From the NCBI GenBank assembly GCA_963815555.1, contig CAWFHH010000002.1, positions 334,421 through 398,420 of the forward strand: a stretch of DNA of 64,000 nt, given 5' to 3'. The notes under the pieces were generated by a model that saw only the letters and a program-made list of their open reading frames with translations, was not told the DNA's origin and ran no database searches. The position numbers and the translations under genes are program-made. Positions 6,217-25,417 of this stretch are shown in pieces. Position 1 is the stretch's first letter. Each line of letters opens with the position of its first letter. Source of the stretch: an uncultured Acidobacteriaceae bacterium. GTDB lineage: Bacteria > Acidobacteriota > Terriglobia > Terriglobales > Acidobacteriaceae.

Positions 6217-8178
6217 CTAACGCAGCGCCGATCCCTTGTCCGGCGACACTGCCGGCGCGTCGCTCGTGGGAAGTTTTGAAACCTTCGGCTTGTCGACAGC
6301 CTCCGTCGCGAACAGCATGAAGTGGTCGAAGCTTTCGCTGCGGTAGAAGCGTCGCTTACCGAAGTGAACGTACAATTCCGCGCTCTTGGGCAACCACAGA
6401 TCGGTACCACTGCGTTTGAATTCCACCGGGCCATAGCTGACGCTGGTATGTTCGGTGAACAGGTGAATCTCCGGAATTGCCCGCACCAGATCGGTTTCCA
6501 GATGAACGATCTGCAAGTTGTCGGCTCGAACCCACGCCCGCCCCTTCAACCGAACCGGATAATAGTTTCCATTTACCACGTACGTTCGCAGCCGGCTGGG
6601 CTTGTCTTCGAACTGCCGGAAATGCACCAGCCATGCCGGCTGACCATTCCAATCGCCCAGGCCCTCGCAGCGCATCTCGAAGCCCTCTCGAAACAGCGGG
6701 TGAAAGGCGATCGCCAGCACCGCAAGACCGGTCGTTGTGATCTTGTCTGGCATGTCCAGGTCTCCGGAATCGCGATACTCCTGAACCGTCAACCCCCCTT
6801 CGGCCTGCTCATTGATGGCAACCACATAGTTATATTGGCGGGTCTCGCGATTGGTCGGCGTTCCCTGTGCCGAAAGATTCTCATGGACCATATGTTCAAT
6901 GGCTGAGAACTGCGCGACGCTATCCACCAGCTGCTTGGATGGGATTGAGGTGGCTTCCAGAATGTTCGCGGGACACGGAATCCCAGGCGCTAGCGACAAC
7001 TTTTGTGCATCCACGTCAGCCGGCATTCCCAAGCTTCCGGCCAGAGAGTCGTTTTCCTCCGCGAGCTCAGGATTGCCAATTCCCATGTTTGCTTCGGCAC
7101 TCACCCCCCCGGACGCTTCACTCTTTAGCCGGGCGATCAATTCCCGGATTTGCGGAGCAACAGGACTTGCCGGATCTTCGCCGAGGTAGGCCGTCAAAGT
7201 TTCGATAGCAGCCTGGTTCTTCTGCAGACCTGCGAGCGCCTGTCCCAGGACCAATCGAGCCGAAACTGCGTCTCTTCCTCCCTTGTCCACGATCCATTGC
7301 GAATTCTCGCGAGCTTCCTCGTAGTTCTTCAGTTTCAAACAGGAATTCGCCAGCACCCTCCGGGCGATCAGGGATTCGCCGTTACTGGCGACAACGATCT
7401 CTTCAGCTGCGGCAGCGTGCGCATAATCGCCACGCCCGTAATAGAGCTGTCCAAGCAGGTTTTGCGCCTGCACGTTTTTCGGATCGAGGTTCGTCGCGGC
7501 GGTCAAATACTGCAGCTCGCGGTCCTGGTCTTTCTGCTGCAGCGCCAGATAGCCAAGGAGAAAGTTGACAGACGAACTTGACGGGTAGCGCCGATTGGCC
7601 GCCTCCAGATGCTTCCGCGCCTCGAGGAAATTCGAGAGCTCCAATGCCTGCACTCCCTTCTCAGCGTCTTTGCGTGCCTTCGAGGGAAGTTGCTGCGCGT
7701 CTTTCAACCTTAAGTCAACCGCCAGCGGATCGCGCGACAAAATCACGGTCTCACTTAGGTCGTGGGTGAGATCGGCGAGCGAAATCTCCTCATGGACTCC
7801 CAGATACCCGGCGGCGCCAACCTCGATCAGGTATTTTGCCGGAGGAAGATCGGCAAAGCTGGTCTCAGAGTTGTTGGTCGTCTGAAACAAGATCCTGCCG
7901 CTCTCTTGGCTTGTCAGCCGAATCAGCGCCTGCTGTTTCAAGGGCTTCTTGTCTTCGCCGAGAATCTTTACGTGGACGGTTCCGCCATCCCGGGTTGCAA
8001 CGGGACTTCCCGGTACTCCCGTTCCCATCGGCGTCCCAACGCCTTGGGCACGAGCGCACGGCACCGCCGCCATCGCAGCCGCCACAACCAGCACGACAAC
8101 ACCCCGCTTGCCAATTTTTCTCGCGAAGTTTCGCAACGTATTCTGCCGCTCCAAGACGAGGATGGCGAAGAGTCTCAT
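6217..8178 (-). CDS. exported TPR-repeat protein with an N-terminal carboxypeptidase-regulatory-like domain and an unassigned C-terminal domain
   Basis: 653-aa ORF with a signal/anchor (VVVLVVAAAMAAVPCARAQ). TPR-like repeats are present (NFLLGYLALQQKDQDRELQYL, AQNLLGQLYYGRGDYAHA). Confidence 0.75.
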   Translation of the reverse strand: MRLFAILVLERQNTLRNFARKIGKRGVVVLVVAAAMAAVPCARAQGVGTPMGTGVPGSPVATRDGGTVHVKILGEDKKPLKQQALIRLTSQESGRILFQTTNNSETSFADLPPAKYLIEVGAAGYLGVHEEISLADLTHDLSETVILSRDPLAVDLRLKDAQQLPSKARKDAEKGVQALELSNFLEARKHLEAANRRYPSSSSVNFLLGYLALQQKDQDRELQYLTAATNLDPKNVQAQNLLGQLYYGRGDYAHAAAAEEIVVASNGESLIARRVLANSCLKLKNYEEARENSQWIVDKGGRDAVSARLVLGQALAGLQKNQAAIETLTAYLGEDPASPVAPQIRELIARLKSEASGGVSAEANMGIGNPELAEENDSLAGSLGMPADVDAQKLSLAPGIPCPANILEATSIPSKQLVDSVAQFSAIEHMVHENLSAQGTPTNRETRQYNYVVAINEQAEGGLTVQEYRDSGDLDMPDKITTTGLAVLAIAFHPLFREGFEMRCEGLGDWNGQPAWLVHFRQFEDKPSRLRTYVVNGNYYPVRLKGRAWVRADNLQIVHLETDLVRAIPEIHLFTEHTSVSYGPVEFKRSGTDLWLPKSAELYVHFGKRRFYRSESFDHFMLFATEAVDKPKVSKLPTSDAPAVSPDKGSALR

Positions 8179-8441: not shown

Positions 8442-8963
8442 TTATTTCTTTGGGGGGAAGTTCTTGAACATCTTCTCGACTGTTTTTTGCAACGCCTTCT
8501 CATTTTTTTCTGGCTTCTTCGACAGGGTCTTAGTCCCAACCGCACGCCAGACCAGGCGCTTGGTTTGGGCATCGTACATGTCGAGGACAAGTGTACCCAC
8601 TTCGTAGGTCACTGGGGTTGTGGTGGCCGTCCCGAATCCTCCCCAATACCACCCGCCGCCAAGATTGTCGTAGAAGGTCGTGTACTCTGTTTGAGCGTCG
8701 GCGGAGCCAACCGCGGTGAGCGCGACATCCCCGGCCGTATCACTTCGCTGCCACCCTTTCTTCTGCAGTTCTTGATCGACAGCATCCTTGATTCGCTGCT
8801 CCCAAAGTGGATCTGTAGTTTTTACTTTCAGCCAGTAATAGGTGTGGTAGCGCTCAAAGTTGGCATGGTGGTCGTAATCCACGGTGACGCTTTGCCCAAC
8901 CGCAAAACTACCAAGCATCATTGTCATCAGCATCGCCATGCATAAATAGCGGATCGCCTTCAT
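8442..8963 (-). CDS. DUF4136-like exported protein
   Basis: Start MKAIRY at 8963 with GGAGAAAGGAG upstream and a signal peptide. YDHHANF..YHTYYW and TLVLDMYDAQTKRLVWRAVGTK are typical of DUF4136. Confidence 0.75.
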   Translation of the reverse strand: MKAIRYLCMAMLMTMMLGSFAVGQSVTVDYDHHANFERYHTYYWLKVKTTDPLWEQRIKDAVDQELQKKGWQRSDTAGDVALTAVGSADAQTEYTTFYDNLGGGWYWGGFGTATTTPVTYEVGTLVLDMYDAQTKRLVWRAVGTKTLSKKPEKNEKALQKTVEKMFKNFPPKK

Positions 8964-9447
8964 ACTTTCTTTCTCCTTTCTCCTCATCTCTTGAGCTCCT
9001 GAGCCTGTGATCGATACTAGGTTTTCGATGCAGGCACTCAAGGCTGCGGGAATCGTCCGAAGGTAGTAGCGAGGGATAAGAACCTCGGCTAAATGGCGGG
9101 CACTCTACCTCGAGAACCGGATTCTTCTTCAGGTGTTATGGCGCACGAGATCCTTGAACAGGTTGAAATAACGGCAACAATTACCCTTGAGTCGCCCACT
9201 CTCGGGCTTGGGAAGTGAATACGAAGTTCGAATACTCTTTGGAAATCAGTGCCAGCCTACTCATGGCGAGTCTTATAAAAGGGGATGTCAAGAGAAAACA
9301 CTATTCCTGTGCGGGAGCAGCGAGTAGTTCGCTGGCATCCAGCGCGGTTAGTTGGGTCGTGCTTGCTGGCTGACGAATATGGCCTAAACCGGGACGAACG
9401 CACTGCGCCCTCGAACGGCGCCTGCTCCCAACCTTTGAAACTTGCAA

Positions 9448-9477
9448 TTGACAACCCGTTCTCGATAGTGGTATTAC
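9448..9477 (+). promoter_or_regulatory. putative sigma70-type promoter for the lgt-like operon
   Basis: TTGACA (9448-9453), an 18-nt spacer, then TATTAC (9472-9477). It lies about 75 nt upstream of the ATG at 9553, with AGGAGAGG just before the start. Confidence 0.3.
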
Positions 9478-9552
9478 TCTGCGGTCAGATCCTAAGGTCC
9501 CCCCGTATTCACGCAGTCCCATCCGTTCGACTGAGGCAGTCTAGGAGAGGTC

Positions 9553-10296
9553 ATGCGCAAGGTGCTGTTCCGTTGCGGCGGCATCCGAGTCTATCCCTAT
9601 CCCTTCATGCTGTATGTGGGGATCGTATCCGGCGTAATATCCGGCACCTACGCCGCTGAGTATCGCGGGATGAATCCGGTACTGACCTGCGTCGCCATGC
9701 TGGTGCTGGTTATCCCCGCGCTAGTAGGCTCGCGGTTCCTGTATGTCCTATCGCACTGGGGGGCGTATCGCGCACGTTCCGGCAGAATCTGGAATCGGGC
9801 TGACGGCGGAGCCTCGCTTTATGGTGGCCTGATTCTGGCGCTCGCGTGCTCCATCCCCCTGCTTTCTCTGCTCCATCTTTCGATTGGCAAATTCTGGGAT
9901 GCGGCAACCATCACGCTGGCTGTCGGTATGGCCTTCACCAAGATTGGGTGCATGTTGAACGGGTGTTGCGCCGGCCGCGAATCGAATAGTCGCTTCGCCG
10001 TGCGATTGCCGGATGCGCGCGGCGTCCGGGTCCGACGCTTACCGTCTCAGCTACTCGAATCTGCGGTGGCCCTGTTGGTTGCGGGAGCGGGCGCAATGGT
10101 ATGGCGCTGGCTGCCTTTCGACGGAGCCTTCTTTCTCGCGGCAATAACGGTGTATGCGGCGGCGCGCTGGGTCCTGGAGGGCACGCGGCATACTATCGAC
10201 CAGGCTGCTGGGGTCAGCTTGCATCGGGCTATCTCTCTGGCCCTGGGTGGCTTGTCATTTGCAGGATTTCTGCTGCTGGGCTGGCACTCTTTTTGA
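9553..10296 (+). CDS. prolipoprotein diacylglyceryl transferase (Lgt) family protein, divergent
   Basis: 247-aa polytopic protein. It has Lgt-like blocks DGGASLYGGLILA, FTKIGCMLNGCCAGRES (in place of RIGNFxNGExxG) and RRLPSQLLES (in place of HPxxLYE). Confidence 0.7.
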   Translation: MRKVLFRCGGIRVYPYPFMLYVGIVSGVISGTYAAEYRGMNPVLTCVAMLVLVIPALVGSRFLYVLSHWGAYRARSGRIWNRADGGASLYGGLILALACSIPLLSLLHLSIGKFWDAATITLAVGMAFTKIGCMLNGCCAGRESNSRFAVRLPDARGVRVRRLPSQLLESAVALLVAGAGAMVWRWLPFDGAFFLAAITVYAAARWVLEGTRHTIDQAAGVSLHRAISLALGGLSFAGFLLLGWHSF

Positions 10297-10360
10297 CCAG
10301 GTAAGCATAGCGCAGCCACGCAGATCGCGATGCTGCGCGGTTGCTGATTAAAGGACACGA

Positions 10361-11344
10361 ATGGGGCATCTTTATCTCCTGCTTGTGCCGTTGGTAGTTC
10401 TAATCGTTATCTCGCTCTTCGGTTTTGTAGGCTGCGCCTCCTTCACTTCTTCGAACATAGGAGCCAGCACGGGCGTGGACTATCCTTCGACGATCAAAGC
10501 TGAGGCCAGCCTTGTCGCGTACTGGCGTTTAGGCGAACCCGCTGCCACGGCGGTGGCGCCTCCTAAGCCCGGCGGAATCGCCGCCGAAGAGCTAGGAAAA
10601 CATCCCGGCAACTACTCCAGATTCCAGCCGCCCGGGGCCATCGATAAGAATCGCCACTCCTTCAATAACGGTGGAACGATCGTTTTGGGACAGACTCCAG
10701 GAATACTCGAACTGGATGCCGCCGCCACATGCATCGAGGTAAACGGCGGAATGGTCACGGTGCCATTCGACGCAGCCCTGAATCTGCCACAGTTCACCCT
10801 TGAAGCCTGGGTAATTGCGGAATTTAATGGCGACCCCCAGGGCAATTATTACTGCCTCTTTGAAAACGGAGCGCCGGCTACCGGGAAGCAGAAGACTGAG
10901 GGCTTCGGACTGTATGCCGGACCTGCCAGCCCCTCCACTCCCAATACACCCTATGAATGGCAGGTTTGGATGGGAGATGGAACCACCTTCACCCAGTTGA
11001 CCAACACCCTTCCTACGCCGGCGGCTGTCGTGTTTCAAAAACCAACGTATCTCGCGCTTACCTTCGATGGAACCAACGTCGTGCTCTACCTCTACAATCC
11101 CGGCACCGGACAGAACCTCTCCCTGCCTTCGGTTGCGCCGTATCAGGCGAAGTTTCCGACCTTCAAGCCTGCCACCTCCGGAAGCTTCGTGATCGGTTCC
11201 GGCAGAAATCTGTTTCCCGCATTTCCCGGCGGCACTCAGCTGTATGCATTTCGCGGAAAGATTCAGGAAGTAGCGCTGTACAACCAGGCGTTGACCATCC
11301 AGGACCACTTGGTAGGACATGAACAGTCGGGCGCCGGTTTCTAA
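10361..11344 (+). CDS. LamG/concanavalin-A-like domain protein with a signal anchor and near-consensus lipobox (putative lipoprotein)
   Basis: N-terminus MGHLYLLLVPLVVLIVISLFGFVGC-ASF. LVAYWRLGE, FTLEAWV, YLALTFDG and FRGKIQEVALYNQAL are Laminin_G_3-type motifs. Confidence 0.75.
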   Translation: MGHLYLLLVPLVVLIVISLFGFVGCASFTSSNIGASTGVDYPSTIKAEASLVAYWRLGEPAATAVAPPKPGGIAAEELGKHPGNYSRFQPPGAIDKNRHSFNNGGTIVLGQTPGILELDAAATCIEVNGGMVTVPFDAALNLPQFTLEAWVIAEFNGDPQGNYYCLFENGAPATGKQKTEGFGLYAGPASPSTPNTPYEWQVWMGDGTTFTQLTNTLPTPAAVVFQKPTYLALTFDGTNVVLYLYNPGTGQNLSLPSVAPYQAKFPTFKPATSGSFVIGSGRNLFPAFPGGTQLYAFRGKIQEVALYNQALTIQDHLVGHEQSGAGF

Positions 11345-11362
11345 CCACTGTAAGGAGATTGC

Positions 11363-11938
11363 ATGCCATCAGCACAAGACATACTTGACTCCATCAATGG
11401 AGCCGATGCGCGGCTGGATAACGTCAATACCAAGCTCGATACCGCCAACAACACTCTCACCGATATGGATGGCAAGCTGGATGCCATCCGCAATGCCATT
11501 CAGGCGGTTGACGCCGATGTCCAGAAGGTCCAGACCTTACTGCAATGGGGATTCAGCCAGCTCATCACGTTGGGGCAATATACCAACCAGGCGCTGTTTG
11601 AGAACGATCAGCAGAATCAGGCGATGATCTGCATTCTGGAACACATCTCGCAGAACACCTGTGCCTTGCTGAACGAAGCGCATACGCAGACCGGGTTGCA
11701 AACGGCCATCCGACACGCAACCCACAGCCTGGCAGAGCTGTATGCGGCGACCCATGCTGAAGCCGAGCTGGCTCGCGAGCGTGAGGCTGCGCTTCGGCGC
11801 AAGATCGAAGAGTGCTGCCCGCCCAAGACACCGGAACCGTTGTGCAACTATCAACCGTGTCCCGCCCCCGCGCCGCTGCGCGAGCCACCCCCACAGGTGC
11901 AGCCACCACCGGACTTAGGCAATCATCCGCCGAAGTGA
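11363..11938 (+). CDS. hypothetical protein: N-terminal Asp/Asn-rich coiled coil and a Cys/Pro-rich tail
   Basis: 191-aa ORF 18 nt after the LamG gene, with AAGGAGA upstream. Contains DARLDNVNTKLDTANNTLTDMDGKLDAIRNAIQAVDADV and the tail CCPPKTPEPLCNYQPCPAPAP. No signal peptide and no family recognised. Confidence 0.65.
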   Translation: MPSAQDILDSINGADARLDNVNTKLDTANNTLTDMDGKLDAIRNAIQAVDADVQKVQTLLQWGFSQLITLGQYTNQALFENDQQNQAMICILEHISQNTCALLNEAHTQTGLQTAIRHATHSLAELYAATHAEAELAREREAALRRKIEECCPPKTPEPLCNYQPCPAPAPLREPPPQVQPPPDLGNHPPK

Positions 11939-11964
11939 TGCCTTGGTTGGTCGGAGGATGATTC

Positions 11965-12384
11965 GTGCTTGCGTTGATCGTATCGGCTGGCTTGGTTATC
12001 GGGTTGGACCAGTGGAGCAAGCGGGCCATCGTGCTGAAGCTGGCGCCCGAGCAAACCCGGTGGTTCGGGCGCTACGTCCAGCTGCGCCACGCTGCGAATA
12101 AGAGTCTTGCGGGGACTTCTCTGAATCGCTGCGTCCTGCTGTGTCTGTGGCTAGGCGTGGCTGGCTGCCTGATTTTTCTGGTGCAGCGGGGCTTCTTCTT
12201 CACGAGTTCGTCGGCGAAGATTGCGATCGGTGCGGCATTGGGTGGATCCGCCAGCAATCTGCACGATCACGTTCGGTGCCAGCGGGTGATTGATTTCCTC
12301 GACATTGCCGGCTGGCCCGTCTTCAACCTCGCCGATGCCGCGATCGCCGCCGGTGCGCTGTTGTCTCTGTGCCTGATGCGCTAA
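11965..12384 (+). CDS. lipoprotein signal peptidase (signal peptidase II, LspA) family, short form
   Basis: 139 aa with a GTG start. Contains DQWSK, GGSASNLHDH (the GNxxDR box with Asp retained) and VIDFLDIAGWPVFNLADAAI (the FNxAD box). Confidence 0.7.
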   Translation: MLALIVSAGLVIGLDQWSKRAIVLKLAPEQTRWFGRYVQLRHAANKSLAGTSLNRCVLLCLWLGVAGCLIFLVQRGFFFTSSSAKIAIGAALGGSASNLHDHVRCQRVIDFLDIAGWPVFNLADAAIAAGALLSLCLMR

Positions 12385-12589: not shown

Positions 12590-13033
12590 CTAGAACGGAG
12601 CAGCCATATCGAAAACGGTAGACCGGCCAAGCCGCTGCACCGGGTCGTGCTCTTTTTTCTTCTTCTCGAAATGAGCCGCAACGTCGACGCCGCACATCGA
12701 GAAAGGAGCGTCAGGATCGACAAACACCCGATAGTCTGCAGCGCCACAGTCGCCGCCGAAACCTGAGTCATAATCGTCCACCGGCCGGGTATTGAATGCC
12801 CCGCGATCTTCGAGTTTCTGCGGACCTGCAGGATGTCGTATGTAGAGTAAGGTCGATGGGAGATACAGCGGCACATGCACAACCTGACCATGATGAATGA
12901 TGGAAGCAGGCGATCTTACTAACTCTTTATCATCGAACACCAGGCTGCCCAAGAAGCGCCCAGGAAACACCACCAGGAATACCAGGACTACAGCGTGAAA
13001 CGCCGCGGAGACTATGAAATGCCTTACCTGCAT
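12590..13033 (-). CDS. hypothetical membrane-anchored protein
   Basis: Start MQVRHFIVSAAFHAVVLVFLVVFPG (one TM segment). The longer ORF to 13219 reads through repeat DNA, so it was trimmed. Confidence 0.5.
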   Translation of the reverse strand: MQVRHFIVSAAFHAVVLVFLVVFPGRFLGSLVFDDKELVRSPASIIHHGQVVHVPLYLPSTLLYIRHPAGPQKLEDRGAFNTRPVDDYDSGFGGDCGAADYRVFVDPDAPFSMCGVDVAAHFEKKKKEHDPVQRLGRSTVFDMAAPF

Positions 13034-13073
13034 CGGTAGCCGCTCAAAGATGTAGTAGCAAAAGCCAGTCGGA

Positions 13074-13194
13074 GGGTGGTCCAGCCTTTCCCAGTGGAAT
13101 TGTAGTCCACCCACACTGTGGGTGCCCGAGGTTGAAAATATCCAACTAATTTGAAAGGGTGGTCCAGCCCTTCCACCGGAATTGTGGTCCACCC
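13074..13194. repeat. two copies of a ~38-bp hairpin-forming repeat (GGGTGGTCCAGCC...GGAATTGTRGTCCACCC)
   Basis: Copies at 13074-13112 and 13157-13194, each with GGGTGG...CCACCC arms. They lie just upstream of the start at 13033. Confidence 0.75.
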
Positions 13195-13376
13195 CTACAA
13201 CGGCATACAACGCCTCCATATTTCAAATACAATGGGTGCCCCATTCAAGCTGTTTTCGCGTGAGCGGGGATTTTTCTTGTGTCAGACCAAGGCTCCCAAT
13301 CCAGGCCGGAGGAAGGCCTAGAGTGGTTCACCGAGTTCTTAGGTAGTAATTAAACCAACTCTATGTGGCACCGCTC

Positions 13377-15311
13377 TTACGCCTTGATCGCCGAGCGCAA
13401 CCTTGGCGAGCCGGTTACGGCGCTCTTGATTTCCGGGGTGTTGCGGATCGTTTCGAGTAGCTTGCGGGTTACCTGTTCATCGATGTCCGAGGCTTGTCGA
13501 ATATCGACGGGATAACGGACGACGAACTCCACTCCGTTGTCGCCCAGGCGTAAATGCGCGCGTGGCTCAGGGGCGGCCAACGGCGCATCGAACAATTGCT
13601 CTACCACGCGATGTTGCCGCTGAATGTCTGCTTCGTATTCTTTGTAGACCGACTGCACGGCTTCCAGCAAAGACTTTTCCACGACTGCCGCGTTCGCCTC
13701 CGGTGTCAGGGCGATGGCGACCTCGTGCCAGGTATAGGCGGTTCCCGGAATCTGCTTGAACAGCGGCGAGGGCTGAAACATTACGGAATTCGAGAACACA
13801 ACCGCCCTGCCCGTGGGATACAGATCCACGCCGGTGCCCGCCAATTCCATCAGCGACAAACGGATCAGGCCGATGTCAATCACGTCGCCGGTGACTCCCG
13901 CTACCGTGATGCGATCGCCGACGCGCACGCCATAGCGGCCAATCAGGAAGAAGTAAGCTGCCATGGAAAGGATGACCGTCTGCAGAGCGACGGCGAGACC
14001 GGCGGTGAGAAAGCCGGCGAACGTGGCCAGCGAACTGAACTCGCTGATGAAGCCGATCGCAATGACGATCGCCATCAGAAATCCGGTAACGAATCGCCGC
14101 ACCAGCAACACCTGGCGGCGACGCCGCGGGTCGTGAATGTAGCGTAAGGTGGCACGCCGCCACAACGCAGACAAGATCGCGACCAGGCCCAGGGCGCCGA
14201 GGATGATGGCCACGCGGGTCAGCAGCGAGCGCAGCACGTGGGTGTATTCCTTCACCACCGAACGGCGCCATTGGGTGAGGTTCCCCGCGCATTCGTCGAG
14301 CAGGATCATCTCCTGGCGCAACGGGACGGCCGCGCCGGAAACGAGTTTGAACCTCGCGGTCAGTTGGGCCAGGCTTCTTTGAATGGCCTCGGCCTGCGCC
14401 GGATCGGAAGACGGCGGCTGGGTCGCGGCGGCGCGTCCCTGCTGTATGGTCTCGCGCAAAGCGGCGCGTAGCGGCGCCTGCAACTGGTCGGCTGTATCGC
14501 GCAACTGGTTCGTCTGCGCGATGAGCTGGTCAATGTCGTGCACGTCCCCCATCTGGCTGATCAGGATGGACGCCTGCCCAATCAGTCCCGCCGAATCGGC
14601 GCGCGTCGACTTGGTGGTCTGTCCATTCGACGGAGCTTTTGCCTTCGCATTGTCGGTGGTCGCGGCTGCCACTTCGGGCACCGACCGCTTGAGCTCGTTG
14701 ATCTTGCCCAGCAGTCCGGTGCTGGCGTTCTCGCTGCTGCTGGCGAAGGCTTGAATTTTTTCCAGCGCTTGCTGCAACGCTTTGTCGAGCTCCATCTCGC
14801 CTTGCAGAGCGCTGCGCTGCGACATGAGCTCCTGCCGCTTCTTGCCGGACGCACGCTCGATCTGTTTATCCAGGTCATCGATCTGCCCTTGCGTTTGCTG
14901 AAGGCGTTGCGCCGTGTCGGCCGTCGCCTTCTCGATGCTCTGCTCGGTCGCATTCTCCTGCACAGGGGACTCGCTGCCGGCCGCAGCATTCTTTTCGCTC
15001 GCCAGCAGACGCGCTTCGGCCTCGGCCGAGTCAAACGCCAACTGCACCGCCTGGCTGGCCAAGCTGCGGGCGTTCTGCAGATACAGCGTGTCGCTCGGCT
15101 GGCCGGCGGTGACGTCTACGTTTTGGACGTTGCGGTACCAGCGAATGGCCGCGTTTAGATGGTTGAGAATTGCCGAACTATCGATCTGGGTTTGCGGAGT
15201 GTTTTGCGCCAGCATGACCCAGACGCCGCCCGTCGCTGCCACAAAAATAAGGAGTGAAGTCGCGAGCCACTTCCTGTGCTCCCGAAAACCAACGAGCCTG
15301 CTTCTTGCCAA
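13377..15311 (-). CDS. mechanosensitive ion channel (MscS family) with a long N-terminal coiled-coil periplasmic region
   Basis: 644 aa with a TTG start. The C-terminal MscS core reads AGLAVALQTVILSMAAYFFLIGRYGVRVGDRITVAGVTGDVIDIGLIRLSL. Confidence 0.85.
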   Translation of the reverse strand: MARSRLVGFREHRKWLATSLLIFVAATGGVWVMLAQNTPQTQIDSSAILNHLNAAIRWYRNVQNVDVTAGQPSDTLYLQNARSLASQAVQLAFDSAEAEARLLASEKNAAAGSESPVQENATEQSIEKATADTAQRLQQTQGQIDDLDKQIERASGKKRQELMSQRSALQGEMELDKALQQALEKIQAFASSSENASTGLLGKINELKRSVPEVAAATTDNAKAKAPSNGQTTKSTRADSAGLIGQASILISQMGDVHDIDQLIAQTNQLRDTADQLQAPLRAALRETIQQGRAAATQPPSSDPAQAEAIQRSLAQLTARFKLVSGAAVPLRQEMILLDECAGNLTQWRRSVVKEYTHVLRSLLTRVAIILGALGLVAILSALWRRATLRYIHDPRRRRQVLLVRRFVTGFLMAIVIAIGFISEFSSLATFAGFLTAGLAVALQTVILSMAAYFFLIGRYGVRVGDRITVAGVTGDVIDIGLIRLSLMELAGTGVDLYPTGRAVVFSNSVMFQPSPLFKQIPGTAYTWHEVAIALTPEANAAVVEKSLLEAVQSVYKEYEADIQRQHRVVEQLFDAPLAAPEPRAHLRLGDNGVEFVVRYPVDIRQASDIDEQVTRKLLETIRNTPEIKSAVTGSPRLRSAIKA

Positions 15312-16534: not shown

Positions 16535-16610
16535 GCCGACGTAGCTCAGTTGGTAGAGCAGTCGATTCGTAATCGACAGGTCATCGGTTCAAGTCCGATC
16601 GTCGGCTCCA
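16535..16610 (+). tRNA. tRNA-Thr (anticodon CGU)
   Basis: The 76-nt sequence folds by hand into a cloverleaf. Acceptor GCCGACG/CGTCGGC, D arm GCTC-AGTTGGTA-GAGC, anticodon arm GTCGA-TTCGTAA-TCGAC, T arm ATCGG-TTCAAGT-CCGAT, with encoded CCA. Confidence 0.95.
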
Positions 16611-17286: not shown

Positions 17287-17470
17287 ATCGAAACCCGCTC
17301 CCGACCGTAGGGAGTATATAGCGTATCCGGCAAGGCCCATAAAGTTCGTTGAGCTCGTACAACCTGAGCTGCTGATTGCTGCATCCCACGTGATCGCTGT
17401 CGGCAGGCCCAAGGGATTCCTGTGTCTTTTTTTGACTTGTTGTTGTCGTAACGGTCAGCGTACTCCGACG

Positions 17471-19522
17471 ATGCTCGTCATACCCACCACGTCCGACAGA
17501 TCACCGCTTTACTGCATCGTCTGGCTCCTCCTCATGGCGGTCTCCACCTTGTCACTGCCTTGCGCAGCGGATAATCCCACTGCTCCTGACGACAATCAGT
17601 CGCTGAAGAGTCTTAGCCTGGAACAGCTTGGAAATCTGGAAGTCACGACCGTGACCAAGGAGCCCGAGGTCATCTGGAAGACACCGGCGGCAATCTTTGT
17701 CATAACCCAGCAGGACATTCAGCGCTCCGGGGCGACCAATATTCCGGAGGCGTTGCGGCTCGCGCCGGGTGTAGAGGTTGCGCGTATCAGTGGCGATGAG
17801 TGGGCGATTGGTATCCGCGGCTTTGGCAGTCGGTTGTCGCGTTCTGTGCTTGTGCTCATCGACGGCCGTAGCGTCTATTCCACGTTCACTGCCGGTGTGT
17901 ACTGGGAGGTGCAAGATACGCTGATCGAGGACATCGACCGGATCGAGGTCATCCGGGGGCCTGGCGGCACCATATGGGGACCGAATGCGGTGAACGGTGT
18001 CATCAACATCATCACAAAACACACGAAAGACACGCAGGGAGGCCTGCTTTCAGCAGGCGGCGGCAATGTTGAACAGGGCTTCGCCGAAGCCCGCTACGGC
18101 GCCGGCAACGGAAAGAATTTTACCTACCGAATCTATGGCAAGGCCTTTGACCGCAGTTCCGAGTTTCATCCGGATGGCGTCAACTACGACGACTGGCAGG
18201 GAGGTCAGGCCGGCTTTCGCATGGATTGGAGTGCGCATAATCGCGACAATTACACACTCCAGGGTGATCTGTACGATCAGAGCTTCGGCGAAAGCGTGCA
18301 AGCCACGACCTACGACCCTCCCGCGACCTACATTCTTAACGGCGACGGCCATCTCGCCGGCGGGAATATGCTGTTTCGCTGGAAAAGAACGCTGGGCGAT
18401 GGAAAGGATTTCCAGCTCAACGCTTACTATGATCGGACGACCCGCCACGAGTTGAACTTTGGAGATGACCGGAACACCGTAGACATTGACTTCCTCGACA
18501 GGTTCAGGCTGCCACGTCAGCAAATCTCCTGGGGTCTGGAACTGTATCTCAGCCATGGCGATGAAATCGAGGTTGTTTCCGGGCTCACCTTCGTGCCGCC
18601 GGTTCGCACCGATCAGCTCTACACCGCCTTTCTTCAGGACGAGATCACTCTGGTGAACAACCGGCTCGCCTTGCTTGCCGGAACCAAGGTCCTGAAGACG
18701 AACTATACCGGCGTCTTGTGGGAGCCCAGTGTTCGGCTGCTGTACACGCCTTCCTCAACTCAGACAGTGTGGGCGGCCTACACTCATGCGGTGCGCACTC
18801 CCGCCGACGTGGAACGGGACTTCTTTCTTTCCAGCTACCTCGGTCAAGGTCCGGGCGGACTGCCGTACTTCGCGCGTTTCAACGCCAATCCACTTTTTCG
18901 ATCGGAAGATCTAAATGGTTATGAACTCGGATACCGCCGTCTTATCAGCTCCAAGCTCTACGTCGATATTGCGGGGTTCTTCAACCAATATGCCAATCTC
19001 TTCAGTGAAGACATCATTGGCCCGACATTCGTCGAGACCGATCCTGCCCCCACACACCTGCTGCTGCCGGCCAATTTCGGCAACGGACTCAAAGGGACGA
19101 CCGAGGGCGGCGAGATTGCTTCCGAATGGAGGCCAGCCACTTTCTGGCGTCTGCGCGGGTCCTATTCGTTTCTCGAGATGCACATAAAAAAAGGACCGGG
19201 CTCGACGGACATCGGCAGTGCACCGGGCGTGCAAGGATCAAGTCCGCAACATGAACTTTTGCTCCAATCCGGCTTCGACCTGCCCAAGTCGATCACCGCG
19301 GACCTTCAGATTCGTTACGTGAGCTCGCTGCCCGCCCAGAAAGTACCGTCCTATTGGACGGGCGACCTGTCGCTGGGCTGGGGTGTCACCGAACATCTTC
19401 GATTGTCGGCCGTAGGACAGAATCTGTTCCAGCCCTATCATTACGAGGCCCTTTACGATCCGCTGGGCTTGGTTGGGATCAAAAGGTCCATTTTCGGCAG
19501 GGCCACCTGGCAATGGAAGTAG
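17471..19522 (+). CDS. TonB-dependent outer-membrane receptor
   Basis: Signal peptide and plug motifs (NIPEALRLAPGVEVARISGDEWAIGIRGF, IEVIRGPGGTIWGPNAVNGVINIITK). Ends in an aromatic residue (WQWK). The start is uncertain (17390 or 17471). Confidence 0.85.
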   Translation: MLVIPTTSDRSPLYCIVWLLLMAVSTLSLPCAADNPTAPDDNQSLKSLSLEQLGNLEVTTVTKEPEVIWKTPAAIFVITQQDIQRSGATNIPEALRLAPGVEVARISGDEWAIGIRGFGSRLSRSVLVLIDGRSVYSTFTAGVYWEVQDTLIEDIDRIEVIRGPGGTIWGPNAVNGVINIITKHTKDTQGGLLSAGGGNVEQGFAEARYGAGNGKNFTYRIYGKAFDRSSEFHPDGVNYDDWQGGQAGFRMDWSAHNRDNYTLQGDLYDQSFGESVQATTYDPPATYILNGDGHLAGGNMLFRWKRTLGDGKDFQLNAYYDRTTRHELNFGDDRNTVDIDFLDRFRLPRQQISWGLELYLSHGDEIEVVSGLTFVPPVRTDQLYTAFLQDEITLVNNRLALLAGTKVLKTNYTGVLWEPSVRLLYTPSSTQTVWAAYTHAVRTPADVERDFFLSSYLGQGPGGLPYFARFNANPLFRSEDLNGYELGYRRLISSKLYVDIAGFFNQYANLFSEDIIGPTFVETDPAPTHLLLPANFGNGLKGTTEGGEIASEWRPATFWRLRGSYSFLEMHIKKGPGSTDIGSAPGVQGSSPQHELLLQSGFDLPKSITADLQIRYVSSLPAQKVPSYWTGDLSLGWGVTEHLRLSAVGQNLFQPYHYEALYDPLGLVGIKRSIFGRATWQWK

Positions 19523-24841: not shown

Positions 24842-25417
24842 GTGAGACGCTGGCTTTCTGTAACTGCCCTGGTCGCCGCGCTGCTGGGCTGCACACCGTT
24901 GGCACGCGCCGGCATTCTCCCCTCGTTAAGCACAACCATTACCATGGACTGCACACCTGCCGCGACCTTCTGCAACTTCAATCCCGGCAGTCTGGGCTCT
25001 CCAGAACAAGGGATGGCCAATTTCAATCCGGTTGCTCCCGGCTGGAGTGCCGATTTCAAATCGGCTCCGGCAATTTCATGGGGCGTTTTTGTCGGCGTCT
25101 ATCAGGCGGAGTTTGGCCCCGGGGGAGACTTCTCGATCGCTGCACCGGATGGTATGGAGTTTCTGGGGACGCTCACATCGGGCATCGCTTTCGAGTTCCC
25201 CGTTGGATTTATACAGACTGTCGCCTCCTTCCAGGGATACTGGAACAACGGGTTGTATGCGAACGGGGTCATGGTGGAGGATCCCTTCGGCCTCAATGGA
25301 CCGTTCGTAACTCTGTCGGTGACCACGACAGCAACGCCCGAACCGGGTAGCTTCTTCCTCTTCGGCTCTGCACTCGCCGGGCTTGCGGGCATTTTCAGAA
25401 GAACTTTCCCTGGATGA
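24842..25417 (+). CDS. PEP-CTERM sorting-domain protein
   Basis: GTG start with AAGGAGG upstream and a signal peptide. C-terminus TPEPGSFFLFGSALAGLAGIFRR (PEP motif, TM segment, basic tail). Confidence 0.8.
   Translation: MRRWLSVTALVAALLGCTPLARAGILPSLSTTITMDCTPAATFCNFNPGSLGSPEQGMANFNPVAPGWSADFKSAPAISWGVFVGVYQAEFGPGGDFSIAAPDGMEFLGTLTSGIAFEFPVGFIQTVASFQGYWNNGLYANGVMVEDPFGLNGPFVTLSVTTTATPEPGSFFLFGSALAGLAGIFRRTFPG

Follow-up and report, generated by a model that had tools for sequence, protein, structure and literature searches.

In the housekeeping lipoprotein pathway, Lgt acts before LspA. The structure of E. coli Lgt conforms to the positive-inside rule, and its periplasmic face is negative (PMC4728403). 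The signature motif of Lgt is the proposed lipobox-binding part, and a membrane-embedded helix delivers the substrate Cys to both Lgt and LspA (PMC8048626). N146C/E151C variants have been recorded among housekeeping Lgts, N146C and H103Y are both found in genuine Lgts, and MSMEG_5408 of M. smegmatis is a second Lgt copy with N146C (PMC13251419). Among more specialised systems, lipidated RiPPs that arise via the lipoprotein pathway are known (PMC13056109), and in dedicated sorting systems the lipidation of an invariant Cys is predicted to precede helix removal (PMC11980579).

We analysed a stretch of 64,000 nucleotides (the window) from an uncultured Acidobacteriaceae bacterium, in which homologs of both enzymes enclose a LamG protein and a coiled-coil protein. 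This cassette is a real, undescribed, conserved, and horizontally spread module. The whole reading proposed here, a dedicated lipidation-cleavage cassette that probably works in inverted orientation, has in our view about an even chance of being correct.

Organisation of the locus

The earlier note on this DNA described four closely spaced genes on the same strand. All four ORFs were found, separated in order by gaps of 64, 18, and 26 nt. The features of the locus, all on the plus strand, are:

9042..9552, +, upstream intergenic leader, 511 bp
9448-9453 and 9472-9477, +, weak sigma-70-like match in the leader (TTGACA and TATTAC, spacer 17/18 nt)
9544-9550, +, good Shine-Dalgarno sequence GGAGAGG, 5' of the first ATG
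9553-10296, +, Lgt-like ORF, 247 aa
9946..9978, +, Lgt-like signature block G132-C-M-L-N-G-C-C-A-G-R142, corresponding to E. coli G145-N146...E151-L-W-G154-R
10361-11344, +, LamG cargo ORF, 327 aa
10361..10435, +, cargo signal, residues 1-25 (MGH, 17-residue helix 4-20, G-F-V-G-C25)
10433-10435, +, codon of Cys25, proposed lipidation site with putative cleavage at G24/C25
11363-11938, +, coiled-coil partner ORF, 191 aa (variable N-terminal heptad repeats, conserved core WGFxQLITLGQYTNQALFxNDQQND...)
11813-11824, +, codons of partner C151-C152-P-P (six invariant Cys in the partner overall)
11965-12384, +, LspA-like ORF, 139 aa, GTG start
12265-12267, +, codon of LspA-like catalytic Asp101, in SNLHD (N98, D101)
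12334-12336, +, codon of LspA-like catalytic Asp124, in FNLAD (N121, D124)

The Pfam searches that the note had suggested were run and matched LGT (104.9 bits), Laminin_G_3 (32.8 bits), and Peptidase_A8 (77.5 bits) in the respective products. The leader had been described as AT-rich with a good promoter. Its GC content is indeed lower (approximately 50–52%) than that of the flanks (55–63%), but the promoter is weak: the TTGACA/TATTAC match fails the criteria of the promoter scanner, and promoter-like matches in the leader are not enriched compared to shuffled sequence.

The Lgt-like and LspA-like proteins

The Lgt-like protein has seven predicted TM helices and a head domain cut to approximately 22 aa. 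It scores 55.6 bits against TIGR00544, under the equivalog cut-off of 118.9. Residues 132–143 (GCMLNGCCAGRE) align with E. coli G145-N-F-I-N-G-E-L-W-G-R, and GCxxxGCCxG, including its three Cys, occurs in 120/120 of the best-listed database homologs. The equivalents of E. coli Y26, G154, Y235, R239, E243, and R246 are kept, that of R239 in 91/91 representatives; at the position of R143 the family has R or K, and His103 is lost.

The canonical GNFxNxE block is replaced, as previously noticed. We rejected the GC...GCC block as a special mark of divergence, however, since it is common to bona fide housekeeping Lgts (PMC13251419), for example those of Atribacterota. Such GC...GCC housekeeping Lgts are also the closest non-cassette relatives in an exhaustive search.

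The LspA-like protein is minimal, with four TM helices in 139 aa, and scores 47.8 bits against TIGR00077, under the equivalog cut-off of 73.95. It gave profile matches to 6RYO, 5DIR, and 9EMZ. In the alignment, SNLHD and FNLAD correspond to the motifs that hold the catalytic Asp residues in solved LspA structures, and N98, D101, N121, and D124 are invariant in 34/34 sequences, bearing out the description of a short LspA with both catalytic Asp boxes.

Conservation and distribution of the cassette

Among loci from other genomes with enough flanking sequence, the full set (Lgt-like, one to five LamG, coiled-coil, and LspA-like genes) was complete in 29 of 32. Because the gene set recurs in this way, the four-gene arrangement is far beyond chance. 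The loci span at least five phyla, all sources being MAGs, and belong to Acidobacteriota, Rokubacteria, Desulfobaccales, Alphaproteobacteria, Chthonomonadales, Gemmataceae, and others. Neighbouring genes are unrelated from locus to locus, searches seeded with divergent Lgt-like proteins recover the same linkage, and several MAGs carry two to three copies. No fifth recurrent family was found at the cassette loci. The proposed enzyme-substrate-partner-enzyme cassette is upheld by this co-occurrence of four families across phyla amid unrelated flanks; conserved synteny, whose absence would have spoken against it, holds across the loci.

Loci that deviate from the full set include L028, an enzyme-less satellite pair of LamG and coiled-coil genes whose MAG carries a complete cassette at another locus, and L057, which comprises the enzymes and four LamG genes without the coiled-coil gene.

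It is extremely improbable that the two enzyme genes are ordinary housekeeping lgt and lspA flanking two unrelated genes by chance. Both products match the Pfam families, and public annotation pipelines call the Lgt-like protein prolipoprotein diacylglyceryl transferase. However, the set is conserved with differing neighbours and sometimes multiplied within a MAG, and the Lgt-like clade is discrete, with 95 representatives at E≤1e-30 in the exhaustive search; the 120 best database matches all score at least 200 bits, none of these being a canonical Lgt. The Lgt-like protein falls under its cut-off while the nearest non-cassette relatives pass and stand alone in housekeeping contexts, and the cassette is also found in Alphaproteobacteria, a group expected to have a canonical Lgt.

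The LamG cargo and its relationship to the enzymes

In the LamG protein, a flexible acidic linker joins an N-terminal sorting signal to a LamG/ConA-like beta-jelly-roll. The AlphaFold model of the protein (pLDDT 91.9, pTM 0.87), which shows disorder in the linker near the Cys, matched jelly-rolls of CBM, lectin, pentraxin, and BoNT-Hc proteins in Foldseek, PTX3 among them. Of 120 independently called homologs, 118 have the GC box, for which the consensus is G-F-V-G-C; one of the two exceptions is a fragment, and the other has an overcalled start. In 87 homologs, the Cys is residue 25. Every paralog has an uncharged N-terminus, a helix of approximately 20 residues, and an invariant G-F-V-G-C-type box. 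Lys/Arg in the N-flank average 0.04 per protein, an Arg in the signal, when present, directly precedes GC, and behind the Cys the closest homologs have an acidic flank (1.5 Asp/Glu), not a basic one. F-V-G-C matches the PROSITE lipobox pattern. Of the signal anchor with a near-consensus lipobox described earlier, the box F22-V-G-C25 behind a hydrophobic helix stands; the signal peptide as a whole is not near consensus, as it lacks a Lys/Arg n-region and has a helix long enough to span the membrane. Likewise, the idea of a module dedicated to one lipoprotein is sustained as to a dedicated LamG cassette, but the cargo is a family of one to five tandem paralogs per locus. Some members carry FN3-like and sub-threshold He_PIG-like modules. 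Of 106 homologs, 92 have both C124 and C165, and an even number of Cys is seen in approximately 73%.

At least 13 representatives (50% identity) fuse the Lgt-like protein in frame to the helix, GC box, and cargo, with linkers that contain 0–3 Lys/Arg (0 or 1 in 11/13); loci L009, L021, and L022 also hold such fusions. In addition, enzyme motif and cargo box co-vary: GCxxQGCC pairs with LRF[R/K]GC in 14/14 loci, and motifs of the N/H type pair with F[VAIS]GC in 24/24. Together with the conserved Cys, fusions and co-variation support the earlier proposal that the LamG protein is a substrate of the flanking enzymes, and we consider a dedicated enzyme-cargo relationship highly probable. The cargo would be made with a signal of three to four uncharged residues, a membrane-spanning helix, and the G-F-V-G-C box. 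Judging from homology, the Lgt-like enzyme would move diacylglyceryl from phosphatidylglycerol onto the invariant Cys, and the LspA-like enzyme would then cleave after Gly(-1), directly before the lipidated Cys. The jelly-roll would stay lipid-tethered to the membrane via its flexible acidic linker.

Alternatively, the N-terminal helix could be a permanent anchor and the enzyme homologs structural subunits, pseudo-enzymes, or self-resistance copies. Extra LspA copies act as resistance determinants in antibiotic gene clusters, which would favour the last variant. Globomycin provides the context for LspA-targeting antibiotics (PMC9943842). The loss of His103 and the position of both enzymes under their equivalog cut-offs would also fit. 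Nevertheless, we judge such a non-processing role quite improbable: the catalytic Asp pair, the R239 equivalent, and the three Cys of the Lgt-like block are kept throughout the sets given above, no biosynthetic genes, including those for antibiotics, flank the cassette at any locus examined, and a plain anchor leaves the invariant Gly-Cys at the helix end and the enzyme fusions unexplained.

The coiled-coil partner

The third gene product is modelled as a single long helix (residues 4–129) followed by a CCPP...C...C Pro-rich tail, in agreement with the earlier description of a signal-less coiled coil. C151-C152-P153, C161, and C166 are invariant in 110 partner sequences, and the Pro-rich tail beyond varies. 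With 249 homologs, all unnamed, the partner is the most conserved cassette protein. Aligned homologs start at a conserved MPSAxD-type N-terminus, no signal peptide was found in 120 listed homologs, and no family in Pfam, NCBIfam, PHROG, or PADLOC matched. The acidic partner may form a long oligomeric coiled-coil stalk of approximately 19 nm and would pair with the LamG cargo as its obligatory partner.

The invariant Cys, the high conservation, and the known lipidated RiPPs would also be consistent with the partner itself being the real or a second substrate. Its CC-P-P would then be S-lipidated by the Lgt-like enzyme and possibly cleaved by the LspA-like enzyme in a RiPP-like manner, giving a Cys/Pro-rich lipopeptide that is released or anchored, with the LamG proteins as recognition or scaffold subunits. 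A signal-less protein could meet the enzymes if these face the cytoplasm. This is improbable, as the CC motif is preceded by a highly charged helix (REREEALRRKIEE) and not by a hydrophobic one of the kind that delivers the substrate Cys to Lgt and LspA. Moreover, the fusions link the enzyme to the LamG signal, the lipobox-like box and the enzyme co-variation reside on the LamG proteins, and L057 manages without a coiled-coil gene.

Charge distribution and membrane orientation

The positive-inside rule is a statistical one. In the window, the Lgt-like protein has 16 Lys/Arg on the side that is periplasmic in canonical Lgt versus 3 on the cytoplasmic side; the corresponding values for the cassette clade (n = 110) are 14.1 versus 2.0, and the bias is reversed in 110/110 cassette proteins and 87/91 representatives. 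The LspA-like protein displays a bias of 10 versus 3, concentrated in loops that canonical LspA exposes to the periplasm, and cassette LspA-like proteins have 9.9 versus 1.1 (reversed in 34/34). Control proteins, counted identically, are normal: the periplasmic and cytoplasmic sides hold 5 and 9 Lys/Arg in E. coli Lgt, 4–8 and 10–14 in the four nearest equivalog-passing GC...GCC Lgts, and 3 and 7 in E. coli LspA. On the basis of this reversed pattern, both enzymes are taken to lie upside-down compared to the housekeeping pair. Provided that the cassette is dedicated, we regard the inverted orientation, read from charge counts, as rather probable. The cargo helix would then lie N-out and C-in, lipidation and cleavage would occur at the cytoplasmic leaflet, and the LamG cargo and the signal-less partner would remain cytoplasmic, on the inner side of the membrane. 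We propose that private enzymes are needed because the housekeeping enzymes are oriented towards the opposite side. The surface display suggested in the earlier note is accordingly disfavoured, the charge patterns of both enzymes pointing to cytoplasm-facing active sites.

The main competing explanation, which we consider possible but distinctly less probable, is the same dedicated cassette in canonical orientation, with an N-in/C-out cargo, periplasmic processing, and envelope or surface display. A private pair would be needed since the atypical cargo signal is a poor housekeeping substrate, and the partner would arrive by an unspecified route or act from the cytoplasm. Linkage, invariant Cys, fusions, and catalytic residues fit equally well. 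All known Lgt and LspA act at the periplasmic face (PMC4728403, PMC8048626). LamG/ConA-like, FN3-like, Ig-like, and He_PIG-like modules are typical of extracytoplasmic proteins and speak against a cytoplasmic cargo, and the conserved C124/C165 pair would suit a periplasmic disulfide. The acidic flank after the cargo Cys fits as well and alone does not favour a C-in helix, and the six invariant Cys of the partner could equally form periplasmic disulfides. On the other hand, the enzymes would defy a strong reversed bias (14 versus 2 and 10 versus 1), the cargo would be targeted to Sec without a Lys/Arg n-region, the Cys comes immediately after two basic residues in 14 loci, and none of the 120 listed homologs of the obligatory partner carries an export signal. 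Furthermore, F-V-G-C fits the PROSITE pattern, so the housekeeping enzymes might be expected to suffice.

A literature search found no precedent for cytoplasm-facing Lgt/LspA-type lipoproteins, nor do we know of one. If the inverted orientation is true, lipid anchoring on the cytoplasmic face would be a process undescribed in bacteria. As a speculation, the cassette could build an array for binding or sensing close to the membrane, in which the LamG heads diversify.

Comparison with known systems

The cassette shares with the housekeeping pathway the enzyme families, the expected order of chemistry, a substrate Cys that immediately follows a hydrophobic helix and has small residues at -1 and -2, the catalytic Asp pair of LspA, and the majority of essential Lgt residues. 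It differs in that the enzyme genes are clustered and transferred with their own cargo, both enzymes are under the equivalog cut-offs, the Lgt head domain is nearly deleted, and LspA is minimal. The cargo signals also depart from housekeeping signals in n-region and helix length, and the Lys/Arg distribution is reversed relative to E. coli in both enzymes. GC...GCC housekeeping Lgts, such as those of Thermatribacter velox and Atrimonas thermophila (both Atribacterota), share GCxxNGCCxG and a similar length (approximately 255 aa). Unlike the cassette protein, they keep His103, pass TIGR00544 (150–164 bits), have a normal positive-inside bias, and stand alone in housekeeping neighbourhoods.

Second Lgt/LspA copies, such as MSMEG_5408 and the LspA of antibiotic producers, are likewise housekeeping paralogs with altered residues. 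In contrast to the cassette, they have been reported neither with a cognate cargo or coiled-coil partner nor as an enzyme pair or charge-reversed, and the cassette has no adjoining antibiotic biosynthetic genes. The lipidated RiPP DybA (PMC13056109) also comes from a specialised cluster and matures via Lgt/LspA-type lipidation and cleavage; however, it has a canonical lipoprotein signal and uses the host Lgt, LspA, and Lnt, its cluster holding no private enzymes. The laminin long arm with its LG domains and PTX3 resemble the cassette in combining a coiled-coil stalk, Cys near its end, and a LamG-like head. This is an architectural analogy only, without sequence relationship, as stalk and head of the cassette are separate polypeptides in a presumed complex. 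Finally, MYXO-CTERM/myxosortase, PEP-CTERM/exosortase, archaeosortase, and rhombosortase systems likewise combine a family motif by a helix with a private enzyme that is nearby or co-distributed, and serve multiple, variable clients. Their tags are C-terminal, on Sec-exported proteins, and processed by unrelated enzymes, whereas the cassette employs an N-terminal tag and Lgt/LspA paralogs and includes a coiled-coil partner.

A conserved four-gene cassette

The four genes of the cassette lie on the forward strand and are separated by gaps of 64, 18 and 26 nt. The earlier note had predicted four open reading frames with this placement and spacing, and both were reproduced; every sequence block quoted in it is likewise present. 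The profile searches it had called for (PF01790, PF01252 and PF13385) each yielded a match above the gathering score.

Cassette genes and neighboring features in the window
6217-8178, minus strand: TPR protein gene
8442-9041, minus strand: DUF4136 gene
9553-10296, plus strand: Lgt-like gene; Pfam PF01790 (LGT), 104.9 bits (gathering score 24.9), residues 4-231
10361-11344, plus strand: LamG cargo gene; Pfam PF13385 (Laminin_G_3), 32.8 bits vs 27.6
11363-11938, plus strand: coiled-coil protein gene; no significant Pfam match
11965-12384, plus strand: LspA-like gene; Pfam PF01252 (Peptidase_A8), 77.5 bits vs 25, residues 9-136
12590-13219, minus strand: convergent 209-aa ORF directly downstream of the cassette; no Pfam match
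13377-15311, minus strand: gene of a mechanosensitive-channel-like protein
16535-16610, plus strand: tRNA-Thr(CGT)
17390-19522, plus strand: TonB-dependent receptor gene

The neighbors are ordinary chromosomal genes, and no integrase, transposase or mobility gene was found near the cassette in the window. A profile search of the 64-kb window revealed no second copy of lgt or lspA. None of the four proteins has a database name; all fall into singleton, unnamed clusters. The leader upstream of the operon comprises 511 bp and is somewhat AT-richer than its surroundings, as had been described. The good TTGACA/TATTAC promoter proposed for it was not supported: the motif pair did not pass a standard consensus scan and shows no enrichment relative to shuffled sequence. 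Upstream of the first gene lies a strong Shine-Dalgarno sequence.

At E <= 0.001, 249 homologs of the 191-aa coiled-coil protein were retrieved, none of which bears a name; those listed are 50-84% identical. An alignment of these homologs was used to retrieve 49 loci from species-representative genomes. All 49 originate from MAGs, mostly of soil, peat and wetland surveys, and none from a cultured isolate, though the genome collection includes many isolates. Loci on long contigs include Acidobacteriota (Terriglobia, Bryobacterales, Vicinamibacteria), Rokubacteria, Desulfobaccales, Alphaproteobacteria and Solirubrobacteraceae, and those on shorter contigs are labelled Chthonomonadales, Gemmataceae, Limisphaerales and others. 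Among the cassette-bearing contigs are complete or near-complete ones such as CAVYEF010000001.1 (4.27 Mb) and contig_39284 (1.78 Mb). Two or three copies occur in several MAGs. According to profile searches of the loci, the genes occur in the order Lgt-like, LamG (one to five tandem copies), coiled-coil and LspA-like, with the LspA-like gene occasionally placed first. Conservation of the neighborhood, which the earlier note had suggested as a check, was borne out, all four components being present in 29 of the 32 loci with enough flanking sequence. The genes surrounding the cassette vary from locus to locus, and all-against-all clustering of flanking ORFs identified only antisense shadow ORFs and no fifth recurring family. 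The same cassette was recovered when the search was started from two divergent Lgt-like proteins. Taken together, this distribution implies horizontal transfer of the cassette.

At two loci (L040 and L041) pairs of LamG and coiled-coil genes are duplicated as units. An enzyme-free satellite pair (L028) resides in the same MAG as L040 (MFD02159.bin.1.34), which has a complete cassette at this other locus. Similarly, a Methylobacteriaceae MAG (L029, L031 and L032) contains satellite pairs or lone coiled-coil genes without adjoining enzymes and a full cassette elsewhere. This arrangement suggests that several sets of cargo are served in trans by the enzymes.

Some loci depart from the common organization. 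Two of them, L057 (11870-12475) and L058 (10276-10908 and 12895-13500), harbor inside the cassette an additional family of ~200 aa with the motifs YVRCGP, PRPGD-ILVRG, HWSH and QGC, without signal peptide and without Pfam match. In L057 the corresponding gene is adjoined by a gene for a PAP2_3 membrane phosphatase, and no coiled-coil gene was found within 14.7 kb. The Solirubrobacteraceae locus L026 (5930-8525; Actinomycetota, a lineage that is presumably monoderm) is a variant whose 580-aa cargo has two LamG-like regions and an FN3-like segment; a coiled-coil gene is present. No Lgt-like gene was detected at this locus, and the LspA-like gene only as a 73-aa fragment.

We also considered a phage or defence origin. 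This was rejected, as PHROGs and PADLOC returned mere marginal coiled-coil noise for the four proteins; the coiled-coil family had no match in IMG/VR, phage or plasmid collections.

The cassette enzymes score below the housekeeping Lgt and LspA models

Both enzymes score well below the equivalog cut-offs that serve as thresholds for naming housekeeping orthologs: the Lgt-like protein reached 55.6 bits with NCBIfam TIGR00544 (cut-off 118.9) and the LspA-like protein 47.8 bits with TIGR00077 (cut-off 73.95). The LspA-like family profile matches the structures 6RYO, 9EMZ and 5DIR over nearly its whole length (E 1e-16 to 1e-19), and its motifs align to GNFIDR/GNLYDR and FNIAD/FNLAD of solved LspA. 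N98, D101, N121 and D124 are invariant in all 34 sequences, so that the retention of both catalytic Asp boxes, already noticed in the window protein, extends to the family.

In E. coli Lgt, Y26, H103, R143, N146, G154 and R239 are absolutely required (PMC13251419). Among 91 Lgt-like representatives, the equivalent of R239 (R205 in the protein encoded here) is present in all and that of Y26 in 80; the equivalents of G154, Y235, E243 and R246 are kept as well. The R143 position is occupied by Arg (76) or Lys (15), H103 is mostly replaced by Tyr and N146 by Cys throughout, and the signature block always reads G-C-x-x-x-G-C-C-x-G. The altered block had been taken as a mark of divergence. However, four of the nearest non-cassette relatives, among them the RefSeq Lgt of a cultured member of the Atribacterota, carry the same GC...GCC block, retain His103 and score 150-164 bits with TIGR00544; the one relative whose surroundings were examined stands alone in a housekeeping neighborhood. 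Since the block is thus common to equivalog-passing housekeeping Lgts, it was rejected both as a mark of divergence and as a sign of new chemistry (PMC13251419). According to a 2026 survey, distant genuine Lgts can have N146C and E151C/D, and H103Y is found in Firmicutes (PMC13251419); an Lgt-type activity of the cassette enzyme is therefore plausible. Its residue set, though not canonical, would be compatible with activity.

The cargo signal and its partner protein

Gly-Cys occurs within the first 60 residues in 118 of 120 independently gene-called LamG homologs, the two others being a fragment and a protein with an overcalled start. The Cys falls between residues 20 and 36, in 87 homologs at position 25; the consensus reads G-F-V-G-C, and the same signal architecture was found across all phyla sampled. 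The box of the window cargo, G-F-V-G-C25, satisfies a PROSITE PS51257-type lipobox pattern ([LIVMFWSTAG](2)-[LIVMFYSTAGCQ]-[AGS]-C, uncharged residues before, Cys at 15-35), whereas the Acidobacteriaceae variant LRF[R/K]GC violates the no-charge condition. The N-terminal flank contains on average 0.04 Lys/Arg per protein, with a net charge of 0 in 110 of 118 homologs and -1 in seven, and the signal therefore lacks the required n-region Lys/Arg (within the first ~7 residues). Hence, the near-consensus lipobox recognized in the earlier note stands as a box, but the uncharged n-region sets the signal apart from a classical Sec/SPII signal peptide. An in-window contrast is provided by a 191-aa ORF (24842-25417, plus strand) with a PEP-CTERM motif (PF07589, 23.8 bits) and the classical Arg-rich signal MRRWLSVTALVAALLGC; this ORF implies an exosortase-type sorting system in the same genome.

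According to the confident structural model of the cargo (pLDDT 91.9), a helix spans residues 4-20, a disordered linker contains the Cys, and the remainder folds into a jelly-roll. The latter matches CBM40, a GH43 CBM, BoNT Hc, pentraxins and the PAPP-A LamG domain (E 1e-7 to 1e-5), and as modelled it most resembles carbohydrate-binding and lectin-type modules.

Among the 120 coiled-coil homologs listed, none has a signal peptide. The 191-aa protein was modelled as a single helix of about 19 nm followed by a Cys/Pro tail; a fold search with this model had no hits, which is unsurprising for a lone helix, and NCBIfam, Pfam, PHROGs and PADLOC hold no model for the protein. Three database homologs of 317-330 aa (P0040, P0060 and P0086) have a beta-rich C-terminal extension of ~130 aa after the Pro/Cys tail.

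Enzyme and cargo are linked by fusions and co-variation

At three loci (L009, L021 and L022) a single reading frame runs from the Lgt-like enzyme through helix and GC box into the cargo, and at least 13 representatives at 50% identity have the same fusion. These fusions are direct genomic evidence that enzyme and cargo signal work together. The Lgt signature motif has been proposed to be the lipobox-binding site (PMC8048626). In the cassettes, GCxxQGCC in the enzyme is paired with LRF[R/K]GC in the cargo in 14 of 14 loci and an N/H-type signature block with F[VAIS]GC in 24 of 24; this split follows lineage, and the co-variation thus stands for few evolutionary events. We consider a dedicated enzyme-cargo relationship probable.

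Three further database proteins (P0443, 1038 aa; P0463, 558 aa; P0466, 342 aa) have a long N-terminal extension preceding the Lgt-like domain, or this domain is attached to an LspA-like N-terminus. Given their Arg-rich, low-complexity junctions, these proteins look like merged or overcalled ORFs in high-GC MAGs; as fusions they are unreliable. The N-terminal extensions of P0443 and P0463 were discarded as a topology test for the same reason. A domain that might serve as compartment marker in the long fusion proteins was limited to a sub-threshold He_PIG match.

Charge distribution and membrane orientation of the enzymes

In canonical LspA both termini are cytoplasmic and the catalytic side is periplasmic. 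In E. coli Lgt, whose cytoplasmic face is strongly positive, the periplasmic parts are the N-terminus, the arms, the head and the opening of the cavity (PMC4728403). We assigned the loops of the Lgt-like proteins by homology to E. coli Lgt and judged orientation via the positive-inside rule only.

Lys/Arg on the canonical periplasmic side vs the canonical cytoplasmic side
Cassette Lgt-like proteins (110/110): 14.1 vs 2.0
E. coli Lgt: 5 vs 9
Four equivalog-passing GC...GCC Lgts: 4-8 vs 10-14
Cassette LspA-like proteins (34/34): 9.9 vs 1.1
E. coli LspA: 3 vs 7

By this rule, the charge pattern of neither enzyme fits its canonical topology, that is, for Lgt, a periplasmic active-site cavity and a positive cytoplasmic face. 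The LspA-like proteins have 9.9 Lys/Arg in loops 1 and 3, 1.1 in loop 2 plus the C-tail and none in the N-tail (34/34). The reversed bias occurs in 87 of 91 Lgt-like representatives at 50% identity, the four exceptions being housekeeping-type proteins. Every loop counted is short, and short loops are the regime in which the positive-inside rule is most reliable. Two unrelated membrane enzymes of one cassette have lost charges on the cytoplasmic side and gained them on the side of the active site. Interpreted most simply, both sit upside-down in the membrane, with active sites toward the cytoplasm.

Several features of the cargo and its partner agree with such an inversion. No Lys/Arg precedes the cargo helix, and any charges present are negative at the N-terminal end (MSEWY, MTDWY) and positive right before the Cys (FRFxGC, LRFRGC). 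Fusion linkers beyond the last helix of the enzyme contain 0-3 Lys/Arg (0 or 1 in 11 of 13). The coiled-coil partner has no signal peptide, and both it and the LamG cargo are acidic, complementing the basic loops on the active-site side. An inverted system would also explain why the cargo has to be accompanied by enzymes of its own. Other features speak against inversion: the flank after the cargo Cys is acidic in the closest homologs, a jelly-roll Cys pair (C124, C165) co-occurs in 92 of 106 homologs, and modules of the LamG, FN3-like and Ig-like kinds typically lie outside the cytoplasm. Given a dedicated enzyme-cargo relationship, we consider an inverted orientation of the two enzymes the somewhat better-favored reading of the sequence data.

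We propose, tentatively and as a possibility short of probable, a second, inverted bacterial lipoprotein pathway serving a horizontally spreading, diversifying assembly of LamG heads and coiled-coil stalks. In such a pathway, Lgt and LspA paralogs whose active sites point into the cytoplasm would equip an N-out, C-in precursor with a diacylglyceryl anchor and remove its helix, so that the products are tethered by lipid to the inner membrane at its cytoplasmic leaflet. It is tempting to speculate that tandem diverging LamG heads together with a stalk of variable length form a binding or sensing array.

Significance and relation to known systems

Lgt and LspA are regarded as essential housekeeping enzymes that occur in single copy and serve as antibiotic targets. 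Here, the pair appears to be co-opted as a portable, cargo-specific maturation module, and no description of the cassette or of an inverted Lgt/LspA was found in the literature searched. The cassette provides a handle on several hundred 'hypothetical' proteins of soil and wetland bacteria from many phyla and accounts for a class of genes now mis-annotated as housekeeping transferase. With four genes, a single Cys and feasible heterologous expression, it is testable. If the inversion is true, it would constitute the first evidence of bacterial thioether-diacylglycerol protein anchoring at the cytoplasmic membrane face and a clean natural case of whole-enzyme topology inversion via charge redistribution, in two unrelated membrane enzymes together.

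By analogy to the housekeeping Lgt/LspA pathway, the same chemistry would be expected for the cassette. Lipidated RiPPs rely on the housekeeping enzymes (PMC13056109). As a portable, cargo-specific maturation module, the cassette has its analogues in the exosortase and myxosortase sorting systems. The dedicated-sorting organization is similar in MYXO-CTERM/myxosortase, where an invariant Cys adjacent to the helix is thought to be lipidated before helix removal (PMC11980579); however, that tag is C-terminal and its enzymes are unrelated to those of the cassette. The inverted pathway, if true, would be the bacterial counterpart of eukaryotic lipid anchoring at the cytosolic face.
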